From IMG/VR virus record IMGVR_UViG_3300012964_000009, positions 1 to 15,150 of that record: DNA of 15,150 nucleotides; one strand, written 5' to 3'. The notes below the pieces were generated by a model. It was not told the origin of the DNA and searched no databases. It was given only the letters and a program-made list of their open reading frames with translations. The translations under genes and the position numbers were made by a program. Shown here one piece after another: positions 1 through 15,150 of the stretch; the stretch's first letter is position 1, and each line of letters begins with the position of its first letter. Source of the DNA: a virus.

Positions 1-123
1 CGATAATATCAATACGTCCAACCTCTTGAAGCCCGACATAATTAACGCTTGATGTATCTCCCCCCAATGAAACTTCGGAAAGCTGACAAGGATTTGCAAT
101 GGGGCCCGTGTACCCACATGTAC
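1..123. repeat. Terminal direct repeat, copy 1 (identical to 15028..15150); overlap produced by linearising a circular molecule
   Basis: Read by eye: cgataatatcaatacgtccaacc...ggggcccgtgtacccacatgtac occurs at both window ends, 123/123 identical. Unit length is 15027 bp. The repeat lies inside an open reading frame. Confidence 0.95.
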
Positions 124-397
124 CGACTACTGCTGGTTCATACTTCATATACCCTGATACTGTGCTGCCGTTTCCATACCAAAGAGTATAATCGACTGTT
201 GTGCCAGTGGGGATGTCTATGGATATTCGTTGAACTGCCTCTCCCGTTGCTGTGTAATCCTGGGTAAGGTTTGTGGGATTTCCCGGGATAAGGATAAGTG
301 TGCCTCCCCCAAGAGGCTCCGCTGTTATCTCATATTCTGCTGACGCGAATGGGATAATAAGAGCTGCAATGAGGAGAACAAAAAGTATTGTTCTCAT
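1..397 (-). CDS. 5' part of a junction-spanning gene (300 aa in total): secreted or membrane protein with an N-terminal signal peptide
   Basis: The ATG at 397 overlaps the stop of the upstream gene (ATGA, 394-397). My translation is MRTILFVLLIAALIIPFASAEYEITAEPLGGGTLILIPGNPTNLTQDYTATGEAVQRISIDIPTGTTVDYTLWYGNGSTVSGYMKYEPAVVGTCGYTGPIANPCQLSEVSLGGDTSSVNYVGLQEVGRIDII. It stays open to base 1 and continues in frame at 15027. This part is not in the ORF track because it is cut by the window edge. Confidence 0.8.
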   Translation of the reverse strand, partial: MRTILFVLLIAALIIPFASAEYEITAEPLGGGTLILIPGNPTNLTQDYTATGEAVQRISIDIPTGTTVDYTLWYGNGSTVSGYMKYEPAVVGTCGYTGPIANPCQLSEVSLGGDTSSVNYVGLQEVGRIDII

Positions 398-2124
398 TTT
401 CTACCCATCCCCATTACGAGATATACAATGGTGAATACTGCAAAGAGTGGGATAAGTAATTTCATCCATCCTCTTACATCATTCATCATTGAACGATCTT
501 GGGCTGCATAACACGCATCGGTATCTTCCCCCCCCTCACACCCCGGCATAATAGTTACCACAACATCCCCATTTGCATTTGTGAGTACTGCGGTAGCTGT
601 TGCAGTTGCTCCGATGGTGATGGGCACCAACTCCATGCGGGTTGTGTCCGGGCCAAAGGATGAGGTTGTGAGGACGCGATCTCCCGATGTGTACCCGGTT
701 TTGGCTACTGTGAGGTGTATTGTGGATACGTTGGGTACTGACATTGTAACTGTACCGGCGCTGTTGGTTGTGGCGATCTGCTGTGTGCCGGCTGGCGTTG
801 TTGCTGATACGGATGCACCCTGCAAGGGTTTGTTGTTGGTAATGTCATTGACGATTACGATCAGGTTGACATTACCTAACCCGGGATCTCCCGATCCTCC
901 GCTGCCGGGCACTGCAAGAAGGTTTGTGGGCCACATGATGATCTCAAATGGCCCCGCTGCTGCTGTAACTCCTGTGCGGGTACTTGTAGTAAATCCGGTT
1001 GCATCTGCATATCCGCTTACGGTGTCCGTAGCTGCTGCGAAGATGTAATGAGATCCGTCAGCATCTGCTGTGGAGTTTGACCAAAGCCCTGTTGTATCAT
1101 CTGTAATCTGGATGTTTGCCCCATAGATTGCACCGGATGTAACTCCGTTAACTGCTGTGAACCATACACGGGATGAGCCGGATGGCGTTGGGGTAGGAGT
1201 AACTGGTGGAATTCCCCCGGATTCATTGAAGTAATTGAGAAATTTTACTGTGGAATTAATGGTATGTCCTGTTGCTGGAACATACATTGAGAATATTACA
1301 TCCGCCCCCACACTCACAACAGATTCGTCCGTGAATCCCGTTGTTCCAGTGTACACGAGGGAATTATTAGAATATATTTTTGTGAGAGATACAGATGATC
1401 CCGATTTAACAATATCTGAATTGAGCAACATTGTATTACTTATCTTCGTTAGGTTCGTTGCTGTGATAGTGTCTGTTGAAGTGGATTCATATGTGAAGTA
1501 GTTAGATCCCGCTGCATTGTACCATGCTCCTGATGTAGAATGATCCCACGTTATTTGCCTACCCCCACAATTCTGATATCCCCCTGCTGTTGGCCCTTGC
1601 TGATATCCAGTAATCTCACGATATGAAGGTATATCCGGCGTGAACGTGATATTTGGATTCATACAACCGGTGTATGTCATTGGTTCCCACGTATCGAAAT
1701 TAAGAAGAATCATCTCTGTATATGTAGAGAAGAACGTCCCATTATCAAATTGATACGTACCGGTTGCGATGGTGTTTGTTCCGAGTTTCAGCTCAAATGT
1801 TCCTGACTGGTCTGGGGCTGGGCCCGGTGCGGCAGATCCTTTTGAGAAGAACGCGTATTCGTTTGGAATCCCGATTGAATCAAAATTTAGATATACCCTC
1901 CGATTATCTCCACCCGTCACCGATGCACCAATATCCCAATTTGGTGTTCCGATGAATGGATCTTCAAGCGTGATCACTTCGGTGGATGCCTGTGCCTGGG
2001 GTGCGATAACAAGCGCAATGAGCAGAATGAACGCAAGGAATGCGACATAGTGGATCATCGCGTCGAAGCATGGGCCGAGTATGGCCTCTTTGCCATACCA
2101 TGTAGGATATTTTGGATATGTCAT
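394..2124 (-). CDS. 576-aa type I membrane surface protein; candidate virion spike (receptor-binding or fusion protein)
   Basis: The track ORF starts at a GTG (2151). The first ATG, at 2124, has AAGGAGAC 8 nt upstream and sits 1 nt after the TAA of the upstream gene. Signal or anchor: VAFLAFILLIALVIAPQAQA/STEV. Thr/Pro linker: PPVTPTPTPSGSS. Two roughly 80-aa segments resemble carboxypeptidase-regulatory (transthyretin-like) beta-sandwich domains (about 622..1170): RVWFTAVNGVTSGAIYGANIQITDDTTG... and GNVNLIVIVNDITNNKPLQGASVSATTPAGTQQIATTNSAGTVTMSV...AKTGYTS. C-terminal TM anchor: WMKLLIPLFAVFTIVYLVMGMGRK. There are 8 N-x-S/T sequons. Confidence 0.7.
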   Translation of the reverse strand: MTYPKYPTWYGKEAILGPCFDAMIHYVAFLAFILLIALVIAPQAQASTEVITLEDPFIGTPNWDIGASVTGGDNRRVYLNFDSIGIPNEYAFFSKGSAAPGPAPDQSGTFELKLGTNTIATGTYQFDNGTFFSTYTEMILLNFDTWEPMTYTGCMNPNITFTPDIPSYREITGYQQGPTAGGYQNCGGRQITWDHSTSGAWYNAAGSNYFTYESTSTDTITATNLTKISNTMLLNSDIVKSGSSVSLTKIYSNNSLVYTGTTGFTDESVVSVGADVIFSMYVPATGHTINSTVKFLNYFNESGGIPPVTPTPTPSGSSRVWFTAVNGVTSGAIYGANIQITDDTTGLWSNSTADADGSHYIFAAATDTVSGYADATGFTTSTRTGVTAAAGPFEIIMWPTNLLAVPGSGGSGDPGLGNVNLIVIVNDITNNKPLQGASVSATTPAGTQQIATTNSAGTVTMSVPNVSTIHLTVAKTGYTSGDRVLTTSSFGPDTTRMELVPITIGATATATAVLTNANGDVVVTIMPGCEGGEDTDACYAAQDRSMMNDVRGWMKLLIPLFAVFTIVYLVMGMGRK

Positions 2125-2125
2125 T

Positions 2126-2470
2126 TTAACGTCTCCTTGCCATTGCAACACCGATCAGAACTGCAATGAAAAATAACACTACTGCATTGGTATTAGCCCA
2201 TGCAATTAATGACGAGAGCCAATCACCCGGATCATCGAGGGGTGTTGTGCTCATCGGTTTCATTGAGAAAATATAAGAATCTCCATCAACGAGGGTTATT
2301 ACCGATGTGCTGTTGTAATAGCCGTACATTGTGCCATTGGGGTGATACACGATGATGTCACGCTCTGCGATGCCGCCGGGATTCGCCAGTGTGATTGTGT
2401 TGGCTTGTACCGGGAAAACTGCCAATGCGATAAGCACCAGCAATGTAAGAATAATGGTTTGTTTGTTCAT
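2126..2470 (-). CDS. 114-aa small type I membrane protein (signal peptide plus C-terminal TM anchor ending RRR)
   Basis: The ATG at 2470 is preceded by TTAGGAGTATGAT (SD). Signal: MNKQTIILTLLVLIALAVFPVQA/NT. C-terminal TM: AVVLFFIAVLIGVAMARRR. The stop lies 1 nt before the next ATG. Confidence 0.75.
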   Translation of the reverse strand: MNKQTIILTLLVLIALAVFPVQANTITLANPGGIAERDIIVYHPNGTMYGYYNSTSVITLVDGDSYIFSMKPMSTTPLDDPGDWLSSLIAWANTNAVVLFFIAVLIGVAMARRR

Positions 2471-2471
2471 A

Positions 2472-4265
2472 TCATACTCCTAATTTCTTTTCAAGTGCTG
2501 CTACTCGTGCTTCGAGTGCTGTGTTCTTTGCATCCTCTTCTTTCAGCGCTTGCACAAGATTGGCGATGATGGCGCGATCGTCAAAGGTATCTGTTGTTGT
2601 GCCTGTTGGAACAAATACAGATTCGTATTCATCCTCTTCGCTTGTTTTGCCTTTTTTTGTAATAACGTTCTTATAATATCCGTCCTGTTTTGTGGCTACT
2701 GCCTCTGGGATGATTAATTTTACATCACCAGCGATAAATCCGATTTTTGTTTGCCCGTCAGAATTGAGAGTATAAGAGGCCGGTTTTAGAGCCTTTGTTT
2801 TTGATATTGCGCTTCCATCATCAGAAAGATATTTTATATTCGATTTTACTTTGGCGTCCGATGTTGTATAGAGGACGCCGTTAGAATCTGCGTATACCGT
2901 CCCTGCCCCAAGTCCACGTATTCTTATGTCTGAATAATCATCAATTAATGCGGTTCCTGTTGTTCCACCAACCGATAGATTTCCGTTAGGGGATATCCTC
3001 ATCCGTTCTATCCCCTGAAGTGTGGTAGATGTCGGCGAGGTGTAAAATATTATATGCGTTGCTGCATTATATACTGTAGATCCGCCCCCCACGTTTAAAT
3101 ATGAGTATGGATTACTTGCTGCCGTAAAAAACATAGCTATAGACTCCTCGGAATTATTATAATGGCCATCTAAATAGTATGCATTTTTTGTCGTCATGTC
3201 CAAAACCGTACTTTGTAATCTAAACGAACCTATCACGTCAAGCGTAACCCCCCCGGGCGTTCTACCAATTCCAACCCTCCCCCCGTCGAGTTGTAAAATT
3301 ACATATGATGAAGTTTTCGTTGCGCTTGACGTGCCGTTAAGGATAAGGTCGTCGTTGGCTGCTGTGCCACCGGTGATTACCTGACCCCCCGGGAGACCGG
3401 GTTTGTAAGCATAGGATTCGTTGATCGCTGTTCCTGCTGGGCCGGGCGGGCCTTGTATTCCTTGAGATGTTATTGGTGATTCAATTTTTGATACACGGGA
3501 ATTGTCATCAAAATAAATTGTCGCTTCTCTCGCCGGTACACTGGTTGTGACAAGGTAATAGCGCATTATGAAGCGGTCGGTTGTATCCATTGGATATGCA
3601 TTGAGCAGAACGTATTCATCTATAAGACGTGTCACGCTGGTTGTGAGAGGTTGTCCTGTGAAACTGTATATCTGGTGTTCTGTGCCGTTGGTGTGGTATG
3701 CGGAGAGATTGTATGCGAGAGATGAAATCCCCGTTGATGTGCTGTCAATTTTGGCGTACGTGTACCACTTGCGATTGCCCGGGGGGAGTGCATTGATATT
3801 GGGGTCTCCTTCGGGCGTCATGAATTGGGCGATGAGTGTATAGGTTCCTGCTCCTGTGGATGTGGCGGATCGGTTGGATTCTTCGAGGTACGGGTATATC
3901 CTGCTCATCGATTGAAAAGAGGTATTCGCGGTTTCATTGGAATTGTGGAGGTAATAGACCACCGGCAATGTCATGGTCATATTTTCTGGACCCATTGGGC
4001 CTTGTGGGCCTTGTGGTCCTTGTAATGGGTTGGTGGGGCATAAGGGAGTCCATTCTGTGAGTGCGTATCGGCAGAAAAACGGTTGGCTTTCTACGGATGG
4101 GTTAATCTCTGCTGCGTGTGCAATTGGTGCAGTTAACAGAATGAATCCGAAGCCAACGCAGATCCACAGTATGATCCATGTTGCGAGTATGCATTTTTCC
4201 TGAAACGGAGTTCGTATAGGATCAGATTCAAAAACGGTATTGTCAGAAAAGATGCTAAAACTCAT
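2472..4265 (-). CDS. 597-aa membrane-anchored fibre protein: N-terminal TM, collagen-like G-X-Y runs, beta-rich shaft, C-terminal S74-type intramolecular chaperone (endosialidase-chaperone) domain
   Basis: ATG at 4265. TM or signal anchor: ILATWIILWICVGFGFILLTAPIAHA. Collagen-like runs: GPQGPQGPMGPE (3984..4019) and GIQGPPGPAGTA (3426..3461). Tail-fibre-like motif: GGRVGIGRTPGGVTLDVIGSF. The C-terminus (aa 469-597, 2475..2861) reads SDAKVKSNIKYLSDDGSAISKTKALKPASYTLNSDGQTKIGFIAGDVKLIIPEAV...IIANLVQALKEEDAKNTALEARVAALEKKL. This matches the S-D-x-x-x-K...GFIAQ-V...PE-V...coiled-coil pattern of phage tail-fibre autoproteolytic chaperone domains. Confidence 0.8.
   Translation of the reverse strand: MSFSIFSDNTVFESDPIRTPFQEKCILATWIILWICVGFGFILLTAPIAHAAEINPSVESQPFFCRYALTEWTPLCPTNPLQGPQGPQGPMGPENMTMTLPVVYYLHNSNETANTSFQSMSRIYPYLEESNRSATSTGAGTYTLIAQFMTPEGDPNINALPPGNRKWYTYAKIDSTSTGISSLAYNLSAYHTNGTEHQIYSFTGQPLTTSVTRLIDEYVLLNAYPMDTTDRFIMRYYLVTTSVPAREATIYFDDNSRVSKIESPITSQGIQGPPGPAGTAINESYAYKPGLPGGQVITGGTAANDDLILNGTSSATKTSSYVILQLDGGRVGIGRTPGGVTLDVIGSFRLQSTVLDMTTKNAYYLDGHYNNSEESIAMFFTAASNPYSYLNVGGGSTVYNAATHIIFYTSPTSTTLQGIERMRISPNGNLSVGGTTGTALIDDYSDIRIRGLGAGTVYADSNGVLYTTSDAKVKSNIKYLSDDGSAISKTKALKPASYTLNSDGQTKIGFIAGDVKLIIPEAVATKQDGYYKNVITKKGKTSEEDEYESVFVPTGTTTDTFDDRAIIANLVQALKEEDAKNTALEARVAALEKKLGV
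3987..4022. repeat. Imperfect 4 x 9-bp tandem repeat (tggacccat tgggccttg tgggccttg tggtccttg) encoding the first collagen-like run
   Basis: Read directly. Units 2-4 (3996..4022) differ by one base; unit 1 is more diverged. Confidence 0.8.
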
Positions 4266-4279
4266 ATAACCCTTTCTTG

Positions 4280-4308
4280 GTACCGGAAGATAATTAATCT
4301 ACCGGTAC
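4280..4308 (-). other. Stem-loop (7-bp stem GTACCGG/CCGGTAC, 15-nt AT-rich loop) in the 67-nt spacer between the 94-aa gene and the fibre gene
   Basis: gtaccgg (4280-4286) pairs with ccggtac (4302-4308). No T-tract follows on the minus strand, so it is not a classical terminator. Confidence 0.45.
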
Positions 4309-4332
4309 TTGTGAGAGGGTATTCAGACTTCG

Positions 4333-4617
4333 TTACATCCTTAATTTCGTCAGAATTGAATCGAAAAGATCCGGGAAGAACTTTGCCACTGCCATGACGA
4401 TAAAAAGTGGAATCAAGCCCAGGACAAGCGCTGTGAGGCTCGGGATGAGTGCAGTGATACCATCAACAAGTGGCCCCACTGTGCTGTTGATATCAAAGGT
4501 GACTGCCATCGCGGGTGCTGCGGTTACAACAGCTGCCGCGCCTGCGGTGATCGATAAGCGGTGCGCATGGATCTTGTCCATGAGTGAATCTTTCTTGGTT
4601 ACAACCTCTTCGGTCAT
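4333..4617 (-). CDS. 94-aa small double-hydrophobic protein; candidate major virion (capsid or membrane) protein, possibly N-terminally processed
   Basis: The track start at 4623 is TTG; the first ATG is at 4617 (MTEEVVTKKDSLMDKIHAHRLS...). An Ala-rich hydrophobic stretch ITAGAAAVVTAAPAMA has an AxA-like site (AMA/VT). It is followed by the strongly hydrophobic GITALIPSLTALVLGLIPLFIVMAVA and a short basic tail KFFPDLFDSILTKLRM. This is the first gene after the longest non-coding region, with a TATA-like box 22 nt upstream and no SD. Confidence 0.65.
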   Translation of the reverse strand: MTEEVVTKKDSLMDKIHAHRLSITAGAAAVVTAAPAMAVTFDINSTVGPLVDGITALIPSLTALVLGLIPLFIVMAVAKFFPDLFDSILTKLRM

Positions 4618-4647: not shown

Positions 4648-5075
4648 GATTGCGCCTTGTATCTTTGTTCTTTACTTGTGTATATTTTGTGTTGGGATAT
4701 GTGCGCGCTATACAAAGACCAAAATTTATCCCGAAGTACTCAAAGCGGGATGGTAAAGGTGGAAGTTGGGTTATTGGAGTATTTCCATTAGAAATGGCGG
4801 TATGGAATGACCACAGGTATTCGCGTTTCCAGTTCTATGTACTGGGTACGGCGCGGTTGGGGTTTTGGGGAAGAGGGAAGCCGAGAGCGCTGGGAGTTTG
4901 ATGAAAAAGTCCTGGGGGATTTGGTATTGTTTGGTTGGGGCCGCACTATCTCAATATGGTTTGGCCGCTGAATTTGCTAATATAGTATGTGCAATTTCTT
5001 CTTGCTGCGTTTTACACAACACAATATAGTGCGTTGAACTGCTTTTGATCATCCACCATTGCAGATAACTGTGAT

Positions 5076-5115: not shown

Positions 5116-5325
5116 TCATGGCTTTCTGGATTTCAGATAATCACAATACATTGGATAGAAAACAGATGCTATAATTACCCCAAGGAGTAGTGCAAATATT
5201 GGAAGTAATGATAACATAAGGCGCCACAACGGATCCAACATTATTACATAATCCGGAGTCAATGCCGATCCACAGTATGTCATGTTTGGTAAACACTCGC
5301 ACATCATAACACTCCATAGTGCCAT
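5116..5325 (-). CDS. 69-aa Cys-containing small membrane protein, hypothetical
   Basis: ATG at 5325. One TM (LMLSLLPIFALLLGVIIASVFY) and 5 Cys. No clear SD. It overlaps a possible 32-aa ORF (5304..5402) in another frame. Confidence 0.5.
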   Translation of the reverse strand: MALWSVMMCECLPNMTYCGSALTPDYVIMLDPLWRLMLSLLPIFALLLGVIIASVFYPMYCDYLKSRKP

Positions 5326-5398
5326 GCCATGTTGATGATGATCAGAAAGGCGAGCATTGCATTACCTGTGCATGGGTGGCAAAGGATTTGGGTGGGGG

Positions 5399-5533
5399 TC
5401 ATTCGCACCGCTTCCATTTTTCGTTTATCATTTCGGCGATTTTGTCATATTCTGATTCTGGGATTTCGAACCAGCTGCAATCAGATCCGGAAGGAAAGTC
5501 ACCTTCTAACTTTAATCCGATTTTAAAAATCAT
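5399..5533 (-). CDS. 44-aa small protein, hypothetical (below the ORF-track cut-off)
   Basis: My translation: MIFKIGLKLEGDFPSGSDCSWFEIPESEYDKIAEMINEKWKRCE. The ATG at 5533 is preceded by ACGGAGGCACCGAG (GGAGG, 7-nt spacing) and overlaps the end of the upstream gene. Confidence 0.5.
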   Translation of the reverse strand: MIFKIGLKLEGDFPSGSDCSWFEIPESEYDKIAEMINEKWKRCE

Positions 5534-6245
5534 CTCGGTGCCTCCGTGGGCTTGGGGTGCTGGTGCTCCGGAGGGATTCTATCGTTGTCTTTAATTGATT
5601 TCCATCGATCTCAAAATACGAGCATCCGTCGCATTTGCGTTCTCCGTTTCTTTGTCCAATACATCCACCTTCTGCTGAAATCTTATCGTCATAAAATGCA
5701 CAGGTTGTTAACGAATCTTCGATTTCTTTTAGCACGCCCTCGCGGGCTTGGGCGATAATGGCGGCGTCGTGCTTTGGTGTTGTGATGATGTTTGAGCATT
5801 TGGGGCAGGTATGTTCCGTTGTTTCCGGTGCTGCTTGGGATGGGATTTTTGCATTACGCCCGATTATATTATATGGTGCGGCGGGGGATGGGCGGGAACG
5901 GGTGTACTTACCGTGCCGTATTCCTGCAAGGAGCACTTGAATTTTAATTTCCAGTTCCTTGAGATCGACTGCTTCTTTCTCGATATTGATAAGTTCTGCA
6001 TAAATCGCATTGCCATCAAGGTCCTGCTGTGGCTGCTGTTGTGGATATGGGATGTGATTTAATCCCAGATCGCCATCGTCAATAGTTTCTGTTGCTTTCG
6101 GACATTTTCCATGATTGCAGATCCAGAAACAATCCCCCATAATCTTATCGCATTTGATCCATGCAACTCCATCGCCTTTGATTACAACAGATGCATCTTT
6201 GCAATGTTCCATCCCTTTGTGCTGCTGTGGCTGTGGGGGGTTCAT
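5523..6245 (-). CDS. 240-aa cysteine-rich protein (11 Cys, CxxC pairs), paralogue of the 174-aa protein; putative zinc-binding, function unknown
   Basis: The ATG at 6245 overlaps the upstream stop as ATGA. N-terminus: MNPPQPQQ; internal PYPQQQPQQ. Motifs RSRPSPAAP, HTCPKCS, AQAREGVLKEIE, KCDGCSY and ESLRSTS are shared, in the same order, with 6433..6957. Confidence 0.7.
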   Translation of the reverse strand: MNPPQPQQHKGMEHCKDASVVIKGDGVAWIKCDKIMGDCFWICNHGKCPKATETIDDGDLGLNHIPYPQQQPQQDLDGNAIYAELINIEKEAVDLKELEIKIQVLLAGIRHGKYTRSRPSPAAPYNIIGRNAKIPSQAAPETTEHTCPKCSNIITTPKHDAAIIAQAREGVLKEIEDSLTTCAFYDDKISAEGGCIGQRNGERKCDGCSYFEIDGNQLKTTIESLRSTSTPSPRRHRDDF

Positions 6246-6436
6246 CGCCGATTCTCCTCACAAAACTTATTCCAAAGATCGTCTATCTTCTTTTGCTCCA
6301 CGTCGCACTTTTTGCAATACTCATCGAACAAAACATCACACGCCTTATCGTGCTTCGCTTGGGCTTCGTGGAGTTTATCATACTGTTCTTGTGTGAAATT
6401 TATTCCGTGTATTGAACACGGCCTGTCTTTACTCAT
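6242..6436 (-). CDS. 64-aa Cys-containing small protein, hypothetical
   Basis: ATGA overlaps at both ends (6433-6436 and 6242-6245). Sequence: MSKDRPCSIHGINFTQEQYDKLHEAQAKHDKACDVLFDEYCKKCDVEQKK... Confidence 0.6.
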   Translation of the reverse strand: MSKDRPCSIHGINFTQEQYDKLHEAQAKHDKACDVLFDEYCKKCDVEQKKIDDLWNKFCEENRR

Positions 6437-6957
6437 CTCTCTACCTCCTTGGTGCTTTGGGTGCCTGTGCGGAGGGATTCAAGATATTTCTCTGGATTTG
6501 CCTGACATTCGCATAAGATATCAAGAATTTGTGATCTGGTTTTTCCTATTGTCTGCCGGTTCAATTCAACTACAAGTTCCTCGCGGGCTTGGGCGGCTGC
6601 TTCTTGGGTTGTTGTAAATATTCTACACGTTGCTCTACAAGATCGATTTGCGGTTTTGCTTGGACACGGATTGCAACAATCTGGCTCCGGTGAGGCGGGG
6701 GATGGGCGGGTGTCATTGTGTTGATAGATACATTCCTCACATGGTGGCCGGGGTTTGATGGAGGAGGATGGGCGGGACCGAATGCTTTTCTGGTGCTTGC
6801 ATCCAGTCACTTTTACAACTTTCTGAAACCGTTTCAAGTCGGATGTGTTGTTTATGGCATCTTCTGGAACAGGACATGTTCCCTGCCCGTCGTGTTCACA
6901 ATCTTCACAACAGAACCATTCATGCGGCTGCTGTGGTTGCTGTGGGGTGGGGGTCAT
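6433..6957 (-). CDS. 174-aa cysteine-rich protein (14 Cys), paralogue of the 240-aa protein; function unknown
   Basis: ATG at 6957 (ATGA overlap). Sequence features: MTPTPQQPQQPHEWFCCEDCEHDGQGTC..., RSRPSSS, TRPSPASP, PPCEECIY, DCCNPC, AAQAREELVVELN, ESLRTGT. Confidence 0.7.
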   Translation of the reverse strand: MTPTPQQPQQPHEWFCCEDCEHDGQGTCPVPEDAINNTSDLKRFQKVVKVTGCKHQKSIRSRPSSSIKPRPPCEECIYQHNDTRPSPASPEPDCCNPCPSKTANRSCRATCRIFTTTQEAAAQAREELVVELNRQTIGKTRSQILDILCECQANPEKYLESLRTGTQSTKEVER

Positions 6958-8490: not shown

Positions 8491-9655
8491 GGTATCCATC
8501 TTGCGCCAATTTGAGGCGCTGGCGTAGGGTGAGGGTTGGAGTGGTTGGCTCCTGATTTATGATTGTTGGCTTTGGTTTTCTTCCCCACTCGCAGAAATAT
8601 AGGGGGGGTGGATCGGTAATGCGTACTTTGCCTCTTGGATCTAACCAAAAATCATTATCTATCCAATCCGGGATATACTGACGATACCAGATTACCCTAT
8701 CAATTTCTACTTCCTCATTTTCTGGCGTGAGTTCGACTGTTTTTAATCGTGTTTCCAACCATACCATATCTGTTTCGTGGTCATCCTTCAAGCACATCAT
8801 ATGAGAGATGGCTTTTGATGCACCATACAGGCGGAATTTGTTATCCCATAAATGGGCATTAAAAATGAGTGTGCCTATTGACCATCCATCAAGAAGGAAT
8901 CCTGGGCGAAGGTATTTGATAAGATAGCTTTTGAGATTCTTTATATCGTCCTTATTTTTTGAGAAGTCAAGTCCGTATGTGTGGGAACCTGTACCATATT
9001 TGCGAGACCAGAGATCGCGTAATTTATCCTCCATCCCTCTACCCCGTGAGTCCTTTACATTGTTTGAAACATCAGCAAATACTGCTAGGTGATAATGCGC
9101 ATATCCTGCGTCTCCTGTTGGGTGTGGTTCAACTACCCAAAAGTAATCAGGTGCTCCGCAATATTTCTTAATCAGTTTGAGGAGTTTCACCCGGGATATG
9201 TTGAGCTGGTGCCATGCGTCCTGTACAGTTACTGTGTCCGGATGATAAGCTGTAAGGGTGATCATTGTCACGGGCCTATCACTGTGCGACTGGAACCAAA
9301 AATCGAGACGTTCTAGTTTGTCAGAAAGTTCTCTTCTGCGTACCGGTCCCCATCGGTTATTGTACGACATAGGGAGATTGAGGACCTTCCCTTTCTTCGT
9401 GTCATATCCTTTTACCATGAATCCCTTTTGCTCGCATTGATCCAGATATTTCACAAAATCCTGACATACGAAATCGTTCTTGTGCCTGGAATCGGTACCC
9501 GGTTGCTCTAGAAGCCGGATGAGAGCGTCCTTTGCTAGATCACTGGGTTGTGTGGATGTTATGCTTATGACTTGCCTAGACGGAGAAGGTTTCCCGCTTC
9601 GCGGGTTCTGACGCTGCGCTGTGCTCTTGCGATGAGCCCCATACGGGAGCGGCAA
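8486..9655 (-). CDS. rep: HUH-superfamily rolling-circle replication initiator (Rep); start codon uncertain
   Basis: Motif I: VTMITLT (aa 129-135). Motif II: EPHPTGDAGYAHYHLAVF (H187-x-H189 followed by hydrophobics; 9089..9097). Motif III: LKSYLIKYLRPG with twin tyrosines Y244/Y248 (8912..8926), comparable to YVAKY of phiX174 protein A. The track start at 9655 is TTG. The first in-frame ATG is codon 80 (9418), preceded by AAAGGGA. Confidence 0.85.
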   Translation of the reverse strand: MPLPYGAHRKSTAQRQNPRSGKPSPSRQVISITSTQPSDLAKDALIRLLEQPGTDSRHKNDFVCQDFVKYLDQCEQKGFMVKGYDTKKGKVLNLPMSYNNRWGPVRRRELSDKLERLDFWFQSHSDRPVTMITLTAYHPDTVTVQDAWHQLNISRVKLLKLIKKYCGAPDYFWVVEPHPTGDAGYAHYHLAVFADVSNNVKDSRGRGMEDKLRDLWSRKYGTGSHTYGLDFSKNKDDIKNLKSYLIKYLRPGFLLDGWSIGTLIFNAHLWDNKFRLYGASKAISHMMCLKDDHETDMVWLETRLKTVELTPENEEVEIDRVIWYRQYIPDWIDNDFWLDPRGKVRITDPPPLYFCEWGRKPKPTIINQEPTTPTLTLRQRLKLAQDGYL

Positions 9656-10141: not shown

Positions 10142-10609
10142 TTATACCTGGAACTTTCGGAATGAACCGTCCTTGAAGAAATACTCATCCGGTTTTCCGG
10201 ATGGAACGACGCGGGCCCGGATCCTCATTGTAGGGATAAAGCAGTTATCCCAAACCGGGATTTTGTCTTTGGGCATTTCAATCCCGATGTCCTCCAAGAA
10301 TGTAACGACCCGGGAGCGGAAAGGATCGGACGGTCCTTTACCCCAGCTCAAAGTCTCAATCTGGAAGTGGTGGAATACTTCAATACCAGTATTTAACTCT
10401 CTCCATGTGAGGGCCGCATTGGTCTTTTTTACGGGTTCTTTTCCGGCTGCTTTGTCCTCTTTTGACTGTGCGGCTTTCATCTGTTTTGATGTGGCTTCGA
10501 TGAGTTCGAAGACATATTCTTCCTGGGGATCGAGTTTTCCTTTACCTGCATTTTTTTCTCCGAGCGGAGAGAAGTTGCCTGCGATTTTTGTACCGGGATT
10601 TCCGATCAT
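10142..10609 (-). CDS. 155-aa protein with a Lys-rich, probably disordered N-terminal third; hypothetical (nucleic-acid binding is only a guess from context)
   Basis: The ATG at 10609 overlaps the RHH stop (ATGA). No motif recognised. Confidence 0.6.
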   Translation of the reverse strand: MIGNPGTKIAGNFSPLGEKNAGKGKLDPQEEYVFELIEATSKQMKAAQSKEDKAAGKEPVKKTNAALTWRELNTGIEVFHHFQIETLSWGKGPSDPFRSRVVTFLEDIGIEMPKDKIPVWDNCFIPTMRIRARVVPSGKPDEYFFKDGSFRKFQV

Positions 10610-10752
10610 GAAAAACCCCCGTGTGCGTTAGTGAATTCGACGGCAATGCGAAGGGCATCTCTCATGTTTTCAATCCCCTTTCTTTTCATGAAGTCTTTAA
10701 GCAGGAGTGAATCTCCTACATAGATTTGTGCTGATGTGGTCTGCTTATCCAT
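10606..10752 (-). CDS. 48-aa ribbon-helix-helix (CopG/Arc-like) transcriptional regulator (below the ORF-track cut-off)
   Basis: My translation: MDKQTTSAQIYVGDSLLLKDFMKRKGIENMRDALRIAVEFTNAHGGFS. The pattern is a beta strand (AQIYVG), helix 1 (DSLLLKDFMKRKG), a turn, then helix 2 (MRDALRIAVEF). It is the first gene after a 153-nt intergenic region. Confidence 0.6.
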   Translation of the reverse strand: MDKQTTSAQIYVGDSLLLKDFMKRKGIENMRDALRIAVEFTNAHGGFS

Positions 10753-10905: not shown

Positions 10906-11703
10906 TCATTCCAATTGCCACCAGTGCGGCTCTATTAAGTCGTGAGTATTGACAAGGACTTTTATATCCTTGATTTGTGTGTCTGATGGAACAACGAAGG
11001 GAATATAGCCTGACCACATATTAGATTTGCCGCAACGGAGCCGTTGTTTTTCGTAAGCCACTGGGAGTCCTTCGCTGTTATATTCTCGACTATATCCGTA
11101 TGGCTGGATTGTTTCGACGTGTCGATAATCCCATATCTCATCAAAGTCGTGTAGTCTGATGGATGGGAGCAACTCTTCGGTTCTTTGATAGATGTTGCCT
11201 TTTATGTCGAGAGTGAAATATTGCGGTTGGAATCCCCACATGCGAGAAGAATTATCGTCGGTGTATGATGCTGCATAGATGAATAGGAATTTCTTACCCT
11301 CTCCGGGATTCGCCACAAAATATTGTCCCCATGATACAGACCACCACTCCACCATTGATAATTCTTTATGGCCCCATACTGTGATGTGAGCGGTTACGTC
11401 CTTATAGCCGGATACATTGACTTTCTCAAATGTCAGCCATTGCCCTTGCTTCATACCATTATATTTTGCAAGGAACTGGGCTTCGGATAATGTGGGTTCT
11501 GGTGTGGGCGTTGGTGTTGCGATCGTTTCTATGATTATTTCGCTGGTTGGCTGTGGTGTTGGTATCGGAGTATCGACAAGGTTTTTATAAGTATTCTTCG
11601 CCGATGTGACACACCCCCCAGTCACTACCATTAATATGACGATCATCAATAATCCAAGTACCATCATTAATTGGAAAACGGTGTGATATTTTTCTTCAAT
11701 CAT
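10906..11703 (-). CDS. 265-aa exported protein: N-terminal TM with a lipobox-like TGGC, Thr/Pro linker, beta-rich domain (possibly DUF4352-like)
   Basis: ATG at 11703. VFQLMMVLGLLMIVILMVVTGGC; PIPTPQPTSEIIIETIATPTPTPEPT; then KQGQWLTFEKVNVSGYKDVTAHITVWG...GKKFLFIYAASYTDDNSS. Confidence 0.6.
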   Translation of the reverse strand: MIEEKYHTVFQLMMVLGLLMIVILMVVTGGCVTSAKNTYKNLVDTPIPTPQPTSEIIIETIATPTPTPEPTLSEAQFLAKYNGMKQGQWLTFEKVNVSGYKDVTAHITVWGHKELSMVEWWSVSWGQYFVANPGEGKKFLFIYAASYTDDNSSRMWGFQPQYFTLDIKGNIYQRTEELLPSIRLHDFDEIWDYRHVETIQPYGYSREYNSEGLPVAYEKQRLRCGKSNMWSGYIPFVVPSDTQIKDIKVLVNTHDLIEPHWWQLE

Positions 11704-12844
11704 CGGTGATCACTGGGAATCCTTCGTACCTGCTGATGAGAGCATCCGTTTCTTCTGGCTTGACAACCATTTGAGAAAACCGCCCCAACTCGGGGAAGCA
11801 CTCTTCTGTAATTTCTGATTCTTCGTTTCTTTGGTCATATTTTCCCTCATATGTAACTCGTAATCGTTTTACCCATTCCCTATCTTTTTTATCTTTTGGA
11901 TAGTGTCGGAAATTCCATGGCTTTGTTGGTGGATACGAATCGCCATTTTCAAAGACAAAGCGCCCATGCTGCGTTTTGAACTGCATTGGGGAGGGTGGAT
12001 CTCTATGAAGTGCATGGGTGCACCATTTAGAGATATTTCCATTCTCTTCTGACTTGACCATTCCCCCGTGACATATGATATTGAAAAGCATATTTTCACG
12101 GGCTGCTGGGGGAATGTTGGTGTATCCCTGTGCATAGAGGACTTCCCTTATTCCTGCGCTACGAAGTTCAAATGCATTTTCTGTTATGGCTTCGGTTGAC
12201 TTTGTGCGCTCCCCATCACCTGAAACACGCTTGCCTGCCATCGCCCACTGTGATTCGTCAATATGCATGGATGCGGGGAATATGTTTGGCATACTCCCAT
12301 CACGACATCTTTCTGCGAGTCCTTCAAAGAAATCGCATACCCATTCGATCGCCATCTCTTTTCGTCGGAAGAAATTGCGGAATGAAATAATGGTGATGGT
12401 GTCGCGCTCGGGTCTATCGTGACGAGTGCCACGAGAACCCACTGCGATTGATGATAATGCATCCTGGGGATTTGATACGTTTACAATCTCTGGATGATCT
12501 TGGATGGGTTGCCATTTCCCATTGTGGTACTCTTCGATGCAGATGTTACAAGCTGTGGGAAGAATGATCCTGATTTTTCTATCCATGCAAAGTAGGGGGA
12601 GTATTTCTCCCTGCTTGCCGGAATCGAACCATATCTGTGTTTCTAGATGTTTGAGCCAATCGATAAGTGCATACCCCTTATTGGTTTTTCCGGCAGATGT
12701 TACCCCAAAGATGAATATGTGCTTTCCGTGACCACATAAGAATTCATCATAGAATCGTCTGCCCACTGCGGTTGTGATAAAAGTGCGCTGTGATTCGTCT
12801 AACTTTTCTAAAAATTTTGGATGTATTCCGACTGTGCGCCCCAT
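11696..12844 (-). CDS. 382-aa P-loop NTPase, FtsK/HerA/VirB4-like; candidate genome-packaging or morphogenesis ATPase
   Basis: Walker A: GVTSAGKT (12683..12706, ggg gta aca tct gcc gga aaa acc). Walker B-like: SMHIDESQW (D196 E197). Q/R segment: EVLYAQGYTNIPPAARENM. No TM segment. The ATG at 12844 shares a base with the upstream TAA. Confidence 0.7.
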   Translation of the reverse strand: MGRTVGIHPKFLEKLDESQRTFITTAVGRRFYDEFLCGHGKHIFIFGVTSAGKTNKGYALIDWLKHLETQIWFDSGKQGEILPLLCMDRKIRIILPTACNICIEEYHNGKWQPIQDHPEIVNVSNPQDALSSIAVGSRGTRHDRPERDTITIISFRNFFRRKEMAIEWVCDFFEGLAERCRDGSMPNIFPASMHIDESQWAMAGKRVSGDGERTKSTEAITENAFELRSAGIREVLYAQGYTNIPPAARENMLFNIICHGGMVKSEENGNISKWCTHALHRDPPSPMQFKTQHGRFVFENGDSYPPTKPWNFRHYPKDKKDREWVKRLRVTYEGKYDQRNEESEITEECFPELGRFSQMVVKPEETDALISRYEGFPVITDD

Positions 12845-13254
12845 TAGAACACCATCTCTTCACCTTCTGGTTTTATCTTGTCGATTACTTTTGATGTGGT
12901 GATGATATCGGAGAGAACTTCAAAGAGGCCGTCCATTTCCTTCTGGAATGTCTTTTCCTCTCCTGTGCATGTGATTGAACTTTCAAAACGGGGATTATAC
13001 ATTTCCCTGATCTTACCTGTCCTTTCAAATGCATCCTGCATCATGGGCTGGATATCCCTATTGTAATCATCCGCCTTTCCTGCGTATGCGACTTTGGGAA
13101 CGTAGGTTTTGAGGTATGCATAGATTTTATGGAGTGTCTTGCGATCGTTCTCGTAGGTGTCACCTTCTTTTCCGTAGTGTGCGAGCTCAAAGAAGATGAG
13201 AGCGGGGATGCCGGTATATCCCATTCCGGCGGAGACTCTTCTATTGGCTACCAT
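12844..13254 (-). CDS. 136-aa soluble protein, hypothetical
   Basis: The track start at 13293 is TTG. The ATG at 13254 (MVANRRVSAGMGY...) is preceded by GTAGGAGAAAAT (AGGAG, 5-6 nt spacing). Confidence 0.6.
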   Translation of the reverse strand: MVANRRVSAGMGYTGIPALIFFELAHYGKEGDTYENDRKTLHKIYAYLKTYVPKVAYAGKADDYNRDIQPMMQDAFERTGKIREMYNPRFESSITCTGEEKTFQKEMDGLFEVLSDIITTSKVIDKIKPEGEEMVF

Positions 13255-13459
13255 ATTTTCTCCTACACCATGACCAGCCAACATAGAGACCAATGAGGAA
13301 GCCTATTGTCGCTGCGATGTATCCGAAGATCATAAACTGGTGAAAGATTGCTTCCCGCAATTCCATGAACTGAATGGGGGTGAATGTGATGTTGGTCTGG
13401 AGTTTCACCCCCGTGTTAATCAGGGTATCGTATCCTGGGCTACTTGGCAGATTTGTCAT
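13241..13459 (-). CDS. 72-aa tail-anchored small membrane protein, hypothetical
   Basis: The track start at 13477 is TTG. The ATG at 13459 (MTNLPSSPGYD...) is preceded by GAAGAGGAAAGAGTA. C-terminal TM: FMIFGYIAATIGFLIGLYVGW. Confidence 0.55.
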   Translation of the reverse strand: MTNLPSSPGYDTLINTGVKLQTNITFTPIQFMELREAIFHQFMIFGYIAATIGFLIGLYVGWSWCRRKYGSQ

Positions 13460-13889
13460 TACTCTTTCCTCTTCCAAGTATTCTCATATACCAAGGATCG
13501 CTCTCTTCTTTCTCCTCTGGCATCCCTGCATATCCAGAGAGGATATATTTGGGTTTCATCAGGTATGCCCATATGCGATCAAAGTACACTCCGTTTTCGT
13601 TGACCGTTCCAAGTTCATATGCACGATATAACATCAGACGAATTGAACAATTTATACCGGTGCGATTTGTTGCAGAGTGATTGATTGCTTCAAGGAGTGC
13701 TCTCCTAACATTGAATACCGGGCTGATCTTACTTGGTACTCCCATCTGATCCATAAGGAGTTTGGCCATTGCGAGATTGGCAAGCTCGGGATCAACCTGG
13801 TCGGGCCTCCATGCATTAACATCCTTGTGTGTGCTGCTCGGTGCCGGGGGAATGGCGATTTTGGTTTCTGGTTCTTGCGATTTAGGCAT
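13440..13889 (-). CDS. 149-aa soluble protein, hypothetical
   Basis: The ATG at 13889 overlaps the upstream gene by 8 nt. No motif recognised. Confidence 0.6.
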   Translation of the reverse strand: MPKSQEPETKIAIPPAPSSTHKDVNAWRPDQVDPELANLAMAKLLMDQMGVPSKISPVFNVRRALLEAINHSATNRTGINCSIRLMLYRAYELGTVNENGVYFDRIWAYLMKPKYILSGYAGMPEEKEESDPWYMRILGRGKSNDKSAK

Positions 13890-14067
13890 CTGGGTATTCC
13901 TCCCTGAATGAAATCAATTCCTTTTGAATATCGTTCATTCTATCCACAATCTCCTTTCGATCTTGCAATGGCATTGTGATAATAGTGTCTATTTCGTTGA
14001 TGTATCCCTTCAACTCATTGACAAGATCAAAAATGTGTTGCTTTTGTTCCGGTGTTGGTTGTGTCAT
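13882..14067 (-). CDS. 61-aa helical or coiled-coil-like small protein, hypothetical
   Basis: The track start at 14139 lies inside the upstream gene. The ATG at 14067 (MTQPTPEQKQHIFDLVNELKGYINEID...) follows the upstream TGA (14073-14075) by 5 nt. Confidence 0.5.
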   Translation of the reverse strand: MTQPTPEQKQHIFDLVNELKGYINEIDTIITMPLQDRKEIVDRMNDIQKELISFREEYPDA

Positions 14068-14072
14068 GAGTA

Positions 14073-14525
14073 TCACTTCAAAATCTGGCTCATCATCGGC
14101 GCGATGATAAACCATCCCAGAAGAATCCCAATGACGCAACCAATCGCCATATTGCGCAATGACTTATTGAGGTTCATCGCTTCCCCTATATCATCCATCA
14201 TGGAGAGACTTCCAAGTATGTCCTCTGCATCTGGAAGTTCTCTTGGAGTCGTATAGAGATTGCAGGTCTCCCCGGCTGGTGAGAGTGCGTAGCCAGTTGT
14301 GGTGAGCCCTCTGCTATCGATGATTGTAACCTTACGGCTGTCCTTCTTTACTTCGTAGGCTTTTGTCTCCCATGTGTTTTGGAGGCTGTTAGCCCGTAGT
14401 TTGAGATCACCAACAAAATGAATGGCTCCTACCATTCCGCTTTCGTCGATATCATCAATCTTTACGCAGGGCATATTGCGCCCTGATAATTTAAACATCC
14501 ACTGTTCAATGAATTTAATCTTCAT
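14073..14525 (-). CDS. 150-aa tail-anchored membrane protein, hypothetical
   Basis: The ATG at 14525 is preceded by AATAAGGAGGATATTTCC (strong SD) and overlaps the upstream stop (ATGA). C-terminal TM: MAIGCVIGILLGWFIIAPMM. Confidence 0.7.
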   Translation of the reverse strand: MKIKFIEQWMFKLSGRNMPCVKIDDIDESGMVGAIHFVGDLKLRANSLQNTWETKAYEVKKDSRKVTIIDSRGLTTTGYALSPAGETCNLYTTPRELPDAEDILGSLSMMDDIGEAMNLNKSLRNMAIGCVIGILLGWFIIAPMMSQILK

Positions 14526-15150
14526 GGAAATATCCTCCTTATTGTTGCTGGTATGTTGACGAGTGCATAGACAATTTCTATTAGGAATCGCACGAGCGCA
14601 ACCTGATCACTTATCCACTGTCTAAAGAATTTCTCAAGATTGCCCCGCGAATTGCGTGCTGCAAAGGCCATTGTTGCCGTCATGTATGATGCAATGATGA
14701 GATCCAAATTATTGAAGAAGAAAATTGTCCATCGGAGCATCGACTCCATAAAATCCATTACGAATTCTGTAATTTTACGGGCGAACTGGACATATTCATC
14801 TATTGCATCGAGGATACTAGTTATTGCGGCTTTCTCTACTTTATCCCGTGGTGCAACGTAAAGCGCAATCCCCGTTAAGGGTTTGTTAGATGAAAGTGAG
14901 TATTTGTAAATAACCCCCTGTGCTGCATAGAAAGCCATTGCATCTCCGCTGGAATGATATCCATATGTGGAATCATACACGAGGAATCCTTGCGTGTATG
15001 GTGTGGTAGATTTGTCTTTTGCATATCCGATAATATCAATACGTCCAACCTCTTGAAGCCCGACATAATTAACGCTTGATGTATCTCCCCCCAATGAAAC
15101 TTCGGAAAGCTGACAAGGATTTGCAATGGGGCCCGTGTACCCACATGTAC
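14522..15150 (-). CDS. 3' part of the junction-spanning 300-aa gene; C-terminal half carries two hydrophobic helices (membrane anchor)
   Basis: 397 nt (397->1) plus 506 nt (15027->14522) = 903 nt = 300 codons plus stop. The M of track ORF 14522..15094 is an internal TTG (Leu in SLGGDTSS). Hydrophobic segments are WTIFFFNNLDLIIASYMTATMAFAA and ALVRFLIEIVYALVNIPATI. Bases 15028-15150 duplicate 1-123. Confidence 0.8.
   Translation of the reverse strand, partial: TCGYTGPIANPCQLSEVSLGGDTSSVNYVGLQEVGRIDIIGYAKDKSTTPYTQGFLVYDSTYGYHSSGDAMAFYAAQGVIYKYSLSSNKPLTGIALYVAPRDKVEKAAITSILDAIDEYVQFARKITEFVMDFMESMLRWTIFFFNNLDLIIASYMTATMAFAARNSRGNLEKFFRQWISDQVALVRFLIEIVYALVNIPATIRRIFP
15028..15150. repeat. Terminal direct repeat, copy 2 (identical to 1..123)
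   Basis: Same 123-nt string as 1..123; position 15028 corresponds to position 1. Confidence 0.95.

Follow-up and report, generated by a model that had tools for sequence, protein, structure and literature searches.

A candidate family of chronic, membrane-assembled viruses of methanogenic archaea marked by an FtsK/HerA-like ATPase

Genome organization

We analyzed a 15,150-nt stretch of viral DNA (IMG/VR record IMGVR_UViG_3300012964_000009, positions 1 to 15,150; hereafter the window), which carries a module of membrane-protein genes and an FtsK/HerA-like ATPase gene shared by a family of candidate archaeal viruses. Bases 1-123 are identical to 15028-15150, and this exact end overlap of 123 nt indicates a closed circle, with a replicon of 15,027 bp; a second, independent assembly of the same genome from another run gave a contig of 15,057 bp whose ends likewise overlap. 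The G+C content is ~45%. Every long open reading frame (ORF) with a homologue or family support lies on the minus strand, as expected from a first-pass annotation, made from the letters alone, that had described a compact replicon with all genes on one strand. No tRNA genes were found in the window, and a search of Rfam gave zero matches. Pfam and PHROGs recognized only four items, namely a collagen/S74 fibre, a CarboxypepD_reg domain in g576, a replication protein (Rep) and a methyltransferase, and the scans of window proteins against these two collections gave no match to capsid, terminase, portal, integrase or lysis families, in line with the earlier statement that the first four were not recognizable.

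The largest unit is a 12-gene membrane/ATPase module of 8.7 kb that runs on the minus strand from position 4617 across the circle junction to 10906, in the order g94, g597, g114, g576, g300, g150, g85, g149a, g78, g149b, ATPase, g265 (Table 1). Strongly hydrophobic 19-residue segments are present in exactly 8 of the 12 products (those of 94, 597, 114, 576, 300, 150, 78 and 265 amino acids (aa)), which agrees with the previous count of at least eight products with signal peptides or transmembrane anchors. The two surface proteins of roughly 580 aa that had been called sequon-rich have 597 aa with 10 N-x-S/T sequons and 576 aa with eight. One gene, split by the ends of the window and first given as 190 aa, had to be corrected, as it was called as a single 300-aa gene on the independent assembly. 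Past the module lie, in order, a 48-aa ribbon-helix-helix (RHH)-like gene, g155, g64a, Rep, small ORFs, a Dam-type methyltransferase and Cys-rich accessory genes.

Table 1. Features of the window and attachment sites of an integrated relative. The last column gives the number of family loci carrying each gene, from iterative ORF searches.
Feature	Position	Strand	Description	Family loci
Terminal overlap	1..123	.	exact repeat at 15028-15150	
g300, 5' part	1..397	-	signal peptide, beta-rich ectodomain; runs on at 15027 across the junction	32
g576	394..2124	-	signal peptide, multi-domain beta-rich ectodomain, TP-rich linker, C-terminal anchor	24
g114	2126..2470	-	signal peptide, small beta-rich ectodomain, C-terminal anchor	22
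g597 (fibre)	2472..4265	-	N-terminal anchor, collagen-like G-x-y repeats, C-terminal Peptidase_S74 intramolecular chaperone	14
RNA stem-loop after g94	4262..4336	-	free energy -23.1 kcal/mol, z -3.74, 0/200 shuffles fold as well	
g94	4333..4617	-	precursor with signal peptide ending AxA, mature part ~55 aa	25
TATA-like match upstream of g94	4709..4716	-	one of three minus-strand matches	
Accessory genes	5116..7193	-	lineage-specific; 79, 174, 64, 240 and 69 aa; several Cys-rich with CxxC pairs	
Methyltransferase	7163..7663	-	Dam-type N6-adenine DNA methyltransferase, orphan	
Rep	8486..9655	-	HUH rolling-circle; motif I ITLT (132-135), II HYH (187-189), III YxxKY (244-248)	12
TTTATATA box	9759-9766	-	upstream of Rep	
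RHH-like gene	10606..10752	-	48 aa, ribbon-helix-helix pattern by eye; first gene of the replication unit	
TTCATATA box	10802-10809	-	precedes the 48-aa RHH-like gene	
g265	10906..11703	-	N-terminal anchor with lipobox-like GGC, TP-rich linker, beta-rich globular domain; last module gene	55
ATPase	11696..12844	-	382 aa, FtsK/HerA superfamily, no membrane segment; hallmark gene of the family	86
Conserved ATPase tail	11696-11810	-	EEC.PELGRFS, ~40 residues, predicted disordered	
g149b	12844..13293	-	soluble, predicted helical; stop codon overlaps the ATPase start codon	77
g78	13241..13477	-	single-span membrane protein, conserved basic ...KYG end	47
g149a	13440..13889	-	soluble module protein	47
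g85	13882..14139	-	small soluble protein, predicted helical	11
g150	14073..14525	-	C-terminally anchored	37
g300, 3' part	14522..15027	-	ectodomain end and hydrophobic helical C-terminal region	32
dif-like/att sites of the relative	L001:12928-12955; L117:9940-9967; L122 ~8011-8040; L116:9940-9967; L002:8181-8208	L122 site on reverse strand		

The ATPase and the family it marks

The second-to-last module gene had been proposed to encode an FtsK/HerA-like ATPase, and both sequence motifs and a structural model bear this out. The Walker A (GxxxxGKT) and Walker B (hhhhDE) motifs are invariant in an alignment of 25 family ATPases, which has 48 invariant columns overall, and the AlphaFold2 model, with a disordered tail, reached a predicted local distance difference test score (pLDDT) of 81 and a predicted TM-score (pTM) of 0.80. 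Foldseek comparison of the model with solved structures returned HerA, the genome-packaging nucleoside triphosphatase (NTPase) B204 of STIV2 and EssC/EccC, while the fold search of predicted viral structures returned the PH1 ATPase, A32-like packaging ATPases and a Corticoviridae NTPase; the best matches had E ~1e-6 and probability 1.0, at TM-scores of 0.3-0.55 and 8-16% identity. Sequence searches with the ATPase against Pfam, PHROGs, NCBIfam, PDB, INPHARED and PLSDB found nothing. We also noted the conserved C-terminal tail (E348 and R355 invariant), which may be a docking peptide for a partner protein.

Among viral structures the ATPase model is most like packaging ATPases (PH1, STIV, the Corticoviridae NTPase and the A32-like enzymes), which led us to consider a virus that, like sphaerolipoviruses, corticoviruses or STIV, encloses a membrane within an icosahedral shell, and whose jelly-roll capsid proteins are too divergent to be recognized. 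PM2 and SNJ1, too, have a rolling-circle Rep and many small membrane proteins. We regard this explanation as improbable. Compared with STIV2 B204, PH1, A32-like enzymes and HerA, the window ATPase has extra N- and C-terminal elements, and no candidate for a jelly-roll capsid protein was seen beside it. The soluble module proteins are only 85-149 aa long, and a crude profile-based propensity analysis indicates that g85 and g149b are mostly helical and g149a is mixed. The same analysis places beta-rich ectodomains in g114, g576, g300 and g265; every beta-rich module protein has a signal peptide or anchor, unlike capsid shell proteins, which leaves no obvious candidate for a shell-forming jelly-roll protein. 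Neither PHROGs nor Pfam gave a capsid match, and no candidate for a conventional jelly-roll or HK97 capsid protein emerged among the soluble module proteins by Pfam, PHROGs or the propensity analysis, though the exclusion of a jelly-roll shell protein from the module by such means is a soft one.

Homologues of the ATPase form 162 clusters in a collection of 5.8 billion proteins, all of them metagenomic and mostly on contigs of 10-19 kb, and an exhaustive profile search of 1.84 billion representatives returned 114 proteins. The remote relatives match Pfam HerA/DUF87, FtsK_SpoIIIE and TrwB as well as phrog_2666, phrog_22963 and phrog_1979, the last being the family of HRPV-1 VP8 and matched by 11 of 76 relatives (best E 3.7e-7). 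No source gave any family member, the remote relatives included, a functional name, and a scan of ten of them did not reveal the virus membership of phrog_22963.

A scan of Joint Genome Institute (JGI) metagenomes yielded 79 family loci on contigs of up to 21.7 kb, and in IMG/VR relatives were present on only two contigs. Three genomes are circular by end overlap: the window, a relative of 15.6 kb (L002/L003) and one of 16.3 kb (L029). One of the two IMG/VR contigs, of 33.5 kb (IMGVR_UViG_3300037067_016798; loci L009, L012 and L013), is a head-to-tail concatemer holding ~1.8 copies of an 18.5-kb relative, which carries extra PDDEXK, HNH and large Dam-domain genes. In the longer relatives checked, most long ORFs lie on one strand. 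Family members keep the membrane module but vary in the replication half: the counts for the conserved module genes (Table 1) fall off because contigs are short, and each accessory gene of the window has at most one homologue elsewhere in the family loci. After the ATPase, g149b is the most conserved module protein, and it is likely a partner of the ATPase.

Searches with the ATPase and Rep against 50,697 phage and archaeal-virus records gave no protein-level match, and a literature search found no description matching the family, which thus appears undescribed. The proposal of a new lineage is supported by these results together with the two IMG/VR contigs and the missing functional names; no close match to a classified virus family, or to a bacterial plasmid or phage, was found.

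A candidate particle protein and its expression signals

The small hydrophobic 94-aa protein that had been pointed out at the head of the unit is indeed encoded by the first module gene, and its plan is the same across 25 loci: a charged N-terminus, a hydrophobic signal ending AxA, and a mature part that combines an N-x-T sequon with a long hydrophobic helix-Pro-helix and closes with a short C-terminal end containing K (...DKILxMLK). The g94 product is a candidate for the major particle protein. It has no Pfam or PHROG match, and its profile showed no similarity to M13 pVIII, the Pf1 coat protein or His1 VP21 (hhalign probability 0.7% for the last). Comparison with a fusellovirus VP1/VP3 profile built from 15 IMG/VR loci gave a weak, non-significant alignment (hhalign 12%, E 0.002, 21 columns) that falls on the C-terminal helix of SSV1 VP1. 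In some relatives the g94-like gene is duplicated in tandem (L045:1686-2239 and L071:2440-3009), and in three others (L007, L074 and L086) it lacks the signal-peptide part and encodes the mature part only.

The first-pass annotation had based an archaeal assignment on TTTATATA-type boxes, leaderless first genes combined with GGAGG sites on internal genes, and oligo-T tracts at unit ends. The boxes are not enriched in the window as a whole (12 observed versus 16 expected), though all three on the coding strand are intergenic and stand ahead of g94, Rep and the RHH-like gene. A ATTAAATAGA box lies ~20-30 nt ahead of the g94 ATG, a spacing that leaves no room for a leader, so that g94 would be leaderless. 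GGAGG/AGGA (AGGAGG-type) sites are present ahead of internal genes, and T5 tracts follow the 265-aa, 69-aa and 64-aa (9945-10139) genes.

A stable RNA stem-loop is predicted between g94 and the fibre gene, overlapping the region just upstream of the fibre start codon, and seven of eight relatives have a T5-T8 tract and/or a hairpin 3' of the g94-like gene. The stem-loop is likely an attenuator or stabilizer that keeps g94 output high, and a hairpin or T-tract at this position fits a short, abundant transcript for a bulk protein.

The replication protein

The assignment of the replication protein as an HUH Rep holds: its three motifs occur in order, and it matches PF23343 (REP_ORF2-G2P) at 28.8 bits, above the cut-off of 27.8. 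Motifs I (TLT), II (HYH) and III (Y244xxK247Y248) are invariant in an alignment of 23 sequences that includes HRPV-1 and HRPV-2. The protein aligns with HRPV-1 ORF1 over ~300 residues, and its profile matches that of the pleolipovirus Rep with an hhalign probability of 96.9% (E 1.4e-10). Among the 72,556 plasmids of PLSDB, the sole match is orf1 of Methanohalophilus mahii pML (E 1e-26, 31% identity over 60% of the protein), a minimal 2.2-kb replicon that shares Rep homology only and has no membrane/ATPase module. The Rep-Arvir family (2026 Nucleic Acids Research paper) was dropped from the comparison, the window Rep being an HUH enzyme and not Rep_trans-like.

A Rep homologue (50% identical) is also found in a 69-kb contig of 60% G+C (L010; ERZ25039502 contig_153986), in an island of ~5 kb without the ATPase module, flanked by bacterial-type genes (PriA, alanine racemase and RF-1). 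The Rep family therefore circulates in Bacteria too, and Rep alone cannot fix the host.

A relative integrated beside an archaeal xerA

Evidence on the host came from an ATPase homologue (P0055) that is 63% identical to the window ATPase and is encoded on 15.6-kb circles from several samples and on one 85-kb contig. The element in the 85-kb contig matches the circular form at at least 99.97% up to a sharp boundary, and the gene 33 bp past the boundary site passes the NCBI equivalog model for archaeal XerA (282 bits, cut-off 220). The left junction was found on the same 85-kb contig via a gene of the other flank, and five other contigs, of up to 234 kb, have the same xerA and neighbors without the element, that is, the empty site.

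The four attachment sites share the spacer TAGGTA. The empty site (attB) reads CTTGCG[G/C]AGAA-TAGGTA-TTCTGCGCAAA, with one host variant having fully complementary arms (11-6-11), and the circle (attP) reads TTTGCGGAGAA-TAGGTA-CTCTGAGGCCA; the junctions are CTTGCGCAGAA-TAGGTA-CTCTGAGGCCA (attL) and TTTGCGGAGAA-TAGGTA-TTCTGCGCAAA (attR). The left arms thus stay with their own flank and the right arms are swapped. From the bases at which attB and attP differ, the crossover falls somewhere from position 8 to position 17 in the 28-bp site, either in the inner part of the left arm or in the 6-bp spacer. No tyrosine recombinase or integrase is encoded in the 86 family loci. Two further attP-like sites were noted in other relatives: CGCAGAA-TAGGTA-CTCTGAGGCCA at L009:13254, and a near-complete palindrome, TTTGCGCAGAA-TAGACA-TTCTGCGAAG, at L022:11545, close to the contig end.

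Archaeal dif sites consist of 11-bp inverted repeats around a 6-bp spacer (PMC2958812), and a xerA/dif module has been reported for some archaea (PMC5357621). Xer-exploiting integrative elements (IMEX) are known from Vibrio, Neisseria and Enterobacter; among them are several filamentous phages, whose attP retains one arm plus the central region (PMC5357621). The reviews consulted, PMC5357621 among them, describe bacterial cases only and give no archaeal example. Judged by its sites, the relative of the window has the appearance of an archaeal Xer-exploiting integrative element. Like IMEX, it has no recombinase gene, its attP has one arm and the 6-bp spacer in common with dif while the other arm is degenerate, and free and integrated forms both exist; unlike the bacterial elements, it would depend on a single recombinase, archaeal XerA, and its dif lies 33 bp upstream of xerA.

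Three proteins encoded in the host flanks cluster at at least 90% identity with proteins of a Methanoregula sp. genome bin. Since the relative is joined to a chromosome beside an archaeal xerA, the archaeal assignment now rests on physical linkage and not on promoter motifs alone; the Methanoregula neighbors and pML, as the only plasmid match for Rep, point the same way. CRISPR arrays were not found in the host loci examined. The same relative occurs in samples 3300001567 and 3300002498, which by their names we take to be toluene-degrading methanogenic enrichment cultures.

These data bear on a further alternative, that of a bacterial element, an inovirus-like phage or plasmid for which the archaeal linkage is an assembly artefact. 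A provirus scan of genome collections found three short contigs with conflicting bin labels (L006, L007 and L008; Dehalococcoidia, Gammaproteobacteria and Methanoregula), so that two relatives carry bacterial labels, and the Rep homologue in the 69-kb contig has bacterial-looking surroundings. The Dehalococcoidia and Gammaproteobacteria labels are probably binning errors, because L006 and L007 (7.6-7.7 kb) consist of the element alone and binning of such contigs is unreliable. The 69-kb contig contains Rep and none of the module, and no bacterial provirus of the whole element was found. Both junctions lie in one contig, the empty site is present in the five others, the exchange at the archaeal xerA is precise, and PLSDB holds no match besides the archaeal plasmid. 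The bacterial alternative is largely refuted by these observations, and we give it hardly any weight.

In the window itself, the cores of the two Methanoregula dif arms, TTCTGCG and TTTGCGG, lie 4 nt apart in the intergenic stretch after g265 (10848-10865, minus strand). The pair stands where the relative has its attP, but the order is wrong for a dif site, and it may be chance or a remnant.

Comparison with known systems

The first-pass annotation had also noted that the gene order echoes that of alphapleolipoviruses such as HRPV-1. As published, the core gene set of pleolipoviruses comprises VP3, the spike VP4, an ATPase and, between the last two, a pair of conserved ORFs that are ORF6 and ORF7 in HRPV-1 (PMC10599561, PMC5867852). 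Profiles of VP3, VP4, ORF6, ORF7 and VP8 were built from six pleolipovirus genomes and compared with profiles of every module protein, and nothing exceeded a probability of 26% (range 0.1-26% for g94, g576, g114, g300 and g150 against VP3, VP4, ORF6 and ORF7). In this sequence-level comparison g576 scored 0.1% against the six-virus VP4 profile and did not match phrog_2231, and all pairs with VP3, ORF6 and ORF7 were at or below 5.5% except g114 with ORF6, at 26% over 20 columns. The ATPase profile reached 12.9% against VP8, over 25 P-loop columns. None of the window proteins matched the PHROGs that hold HRPV-1 proteins.

The alphapleolipoviruses HRPV-1 and HRPV-2 therefore resemble the window in having a homologous HUH Rep with the same three motifs; a small circle with conserved core genes in one direction and no capsid genes; and an order that leads from a small membrane protein through a glycoprotein of ~520-580 aa, with signal peptide and C-terminal anchor, and membrane proteins to an NTPase of ~340-400 aa. 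They differ in that VP3, VP4, ORF6 and ORF7 have no detectable counterpart in the window and VP8 is alike in the P-loop only, that they have ~5 module genes compared with 12, including a collagen/S74 fibre, in the window, and that their hosts are haloarchaea and that of the window family is probably a methanogen. At the level of sequence, then, the earlier comparison stands as homology for Rep and as analogy of layout for the structural genes.

Rep homology to HRPV-1 and HRPV-2, the similar order and the matches of some remote ATPase relatives to the VP8 PHROG would suit true membership of the window in Pleolipoviridae, or in the class of that family, as a divergent representative. We judge this very improbable: the module profiles gave only the low values listed above, no window protein matches pleolipovirus PHROGs, and six genes, not two, separate the spike-like g576 from the ATPase. 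Pleolipoviruses and plasmids are, moreover, known to exchange Rep genes (PMC10599561).

The comparison with inoviruses (Tubulavirales) fits at least as well. The operational criteria of Roux et al., 2019 (PMC6813254) were the presence of an FtsK-HerA ATPase, structural proteins 30-90 aa long that span the membrane once, and short genes for most of which no function is known. The window has an ATPase of that superfamily, single-span proteins of inovirus structural size (mature g94, g78 and g69) and short, mostly unannotated genes. Inoviruses and the window also share a Rep in the Pfam ORF2/G2P family; an FtsK-HerA-superfamily ATPase as the only broadly conserved gene; a coat-like protein shorter than 90 aa that combines a signal peptide with a single hydrophobic span and whose gene precedes a transcript-ending signal; an order from the coat-like gene through large anchored proteins to the ATPase; a single coding strand; and no lysis genes. 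The XerCD-dependent inoviruses CTXphi, VGJphi and TLCphi resemble the integrated relative in inserting at dif without an integrase, by an attP of one arm and the spacer. In contrast to inovirus pI, which has a C-terminal membrane segment, the window ATPase has none and does not match Zot (inovirus pI), a family matched by only one of 76 remote relatives. The g94 tail is weakly basic, no single-stranded DNA (ssDNA)-binding protein was recognized among the window proteins, the genome is about twice the usual inovirus size, and there are several extra glycoproteins. By these sequence comparisons the window would fall outside both groups, as neither the Zot-type pI with a membrane segment of inoviruses nor the VP3, VP4, ORF6 and ORF7 of pleolipoviruses was detected. 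Putative inoviruses of Methanosarcinaceae are among those reported by Roux et al., 2019 (PMC6813254).

Spindle-shaped viruses (SSV1 and His1) share with the window a small, very hydrophobic, sequon-bearing candidate for the major protein, a genome of ~15 kb and small Cys-rich proteins, and His1 also has large anchored proteins downstream of its capsid gene. The SSV1 motif LVPLFYILVLIIVPAVVA and the window-family motif LIPSIINLIVAIVPAIIV look shared, though the similarity is not significant. The window differs in that cleaved g94 has one hydrophobic region and in encoding neither a DnaA-like ATPase nor a protein-primed polymerase or an integrase. On its description, contig C1359 of Ngo et al., 2022 was rejected as an analogue: the genes listed for it, for a DnaA-like ATPase and a capsid protein like that of His1, are unlike those of the window.

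Surface proteins and accessory genes

The prediction of a collagen-like S74 fibre was confirmed for g597, which has GPQ/GPP collagen-like repeats, a Peptidase_S74 match in Pfam (8.8e-9) and matches to tail-fibre PHROGs down to 5e-16; the gene is variable in the family, being present at 14 loci with lengths that differ among relatives. The CarboxypepD_reg match of g576 covers residues 434-497 (9e-8, Pfam), and the protein is a candidate spike or adsorption protein; its AlphaFold2 model, from an alignment of two sequences, had a pLDDT of 33.

The orphan methyltransferase annotated earlier matches PF05869 (Dam) and phrog_111 (4e-22), and TIGR01712 weakly. For the 48-aa protein, described before as an RHH regulator, the pattern is visible by eye and Pfam gave no match, leaving it a putative regulator. 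The Cys-rich proteins of 79, 174, 240 and 64 aa (5523-7193 and 9945-10139) contain several CxxC pairs, like the small CxxC ORFs of His1 and His2.

Discussion

The explanation that we favor, with a probability of roughly 0.6, is that the window is the complete genome of a chronic virus that assembles at the membrane, does not lyse its host and represents a new lineage of family level or higher. The features that lead us to it are the one-strand circle, the rolling-circle Rep, the processed mini membrane protein, the anchored glycoproteins, the exchangeable fibre, the FtsK/HerA ATPase with its membrane partners, the lack of lysis genes and the Xer lysogeny of a relative. The host is probably a methanogenic archaeon in or near Methanoregulaceae. 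The logic of such a virus would be inovirus-like or pleolipovirus-like; the sequence does not decide between a filament, a pleomorphic vesicle and a spindle as the shape of its particle. The original, hedged proposal of a membrane-associated archaeal virus or virus-like plasmid is supported in both its lineage and its archaeal side.

Several points weigh against a virus. The module proteins have no detectable homology to proven virion proteins beyond generic fibre domains. At its C-terminus g94 is only weakly basic, which makes contact with DNA less than obvious; further points are the lack of a recognized ssDNA-binding protein and the ATPase's lack of a Zot match and of a membrane segment. 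With relatives on only two IMG/VR contigs, viral detection pipelines mostly miss the family. The host is derived from a relative with a 63%-identical ATPase and not from the window itself, which has no Methanoregula-type dif-like attP and no convincing intergenic 11-6-11 palindrome, and whose genome is recorded only as a free circle, with no integrated copy. FtsK/HerA ATPases with small membrane partners also drive plasmid DNA transfer.

The last point leads to the alternative of a virus-like plasmid, in which the module would be a membrane apparatus for DNA transfer or vesicle export, made up of pump, membrane partners and adhesins, with no true virion; spread of a replicon without a virion has been proposed for archaeal vesicle-borne or conjugative plasmids. 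The matches of remote ATPase relatives to the TrwB coupling-protein, FtsK_SpoIIIE and HerA families are consistent with this, as are an archaeal rolling-circle plasmid as the only plasmid match of Rep, the lack of a recognized capsid protein, the rarity with which virus finders pick up the family and the fact that all copies of the window genome are episomal circles. The fibre, however, with its S74 chaperone and its matches to tail-fibre PHROGs, is an adhesin of virion type, and the tiny processed g94, with its own expression signals and its tandem duplications, looks like a mass-produced subunit. The module is also compact and collinear, as in chronic viruses, and Pfam and PHROG scans of the window proteins found no relaxase and no VirB4-type second ATPase. 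On balance we think a virus-like plasmid unlikely, yet it is the strongest of the rival explanations.

If the window is a chronic virus, its cycle might run as follows. Rep would nick the double-stranded form and drive rolling-circle replication. The g94 protein would be overproduced by means of its own TATA-like box, leaderless start and attenuating hairpin or T-tract, inserted into the membrane and cut by signal peptidase to a glycosylated peptide of ~55 aa that would form the bulk of the particle. The g576, g300, g150 and g114 proteins and the exchangeable fibre g597 would be displayed on the particle for attachment and entry, and the ATPase, together with g149b and g78, would move the genome into the nascent particle at the membrane, which would leave by extrusion or budding without lysis. 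Relatives would turn lysogenic when host XerA recombines a dif-like attP, with one good arm and the spacer, with the chromosomal dif.

The family would belong among the chronic membrane-associated viruses and virus-like plasmids of archaea. It illustrates modular evolution, in that a Rep of pleolipovirus or plasmid type is joined to an unrelated membrane/ATPase module, and the ATPase and the 55-aa protein provide a practical marker for finding further members. To our knowledge, hardly any viruses are known for Methanomicrobiales, major methane producers of wetlands, sediments and digesters; the family turns up often in metagenomes from these habitats, yet it is missing from the phage and archaeal-virus records searched and all but missing from IMG/VR.

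We were most surprised by the XerA/dif integration of the relative, which lies outside the window and bears on how a family without integrases persists. It pinpoints a xerA-dif module in Methanoregula and indicates that integrase-less Xer hijacking is not confined to Bacteria. A more speculative step, which we hold possible though doubtful, is that the family is the archaeal counterpart of the filamentous phages, an ancient, separate chronic lineage of methanogen viruses with XerA/dif lysogeny, in which the FtsK/HerA ATPase would assemble a membrane-inserted coat protein of 55 aa around DNA made by rolling-circle replication, at the cell membrane. If the samples holding the relative are indeed such enrichment cultures, material for particle isolation may exist. 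Were the counterpart reading true, Archaea would gain their first described Xer-exploiting integrative elements, along with the kind of additional clade that, according to Roux et al., 2019 (PMC6813254), is required before the presence of these viruses in Archaea can be argued to be ancestral and not horizontally acquired.

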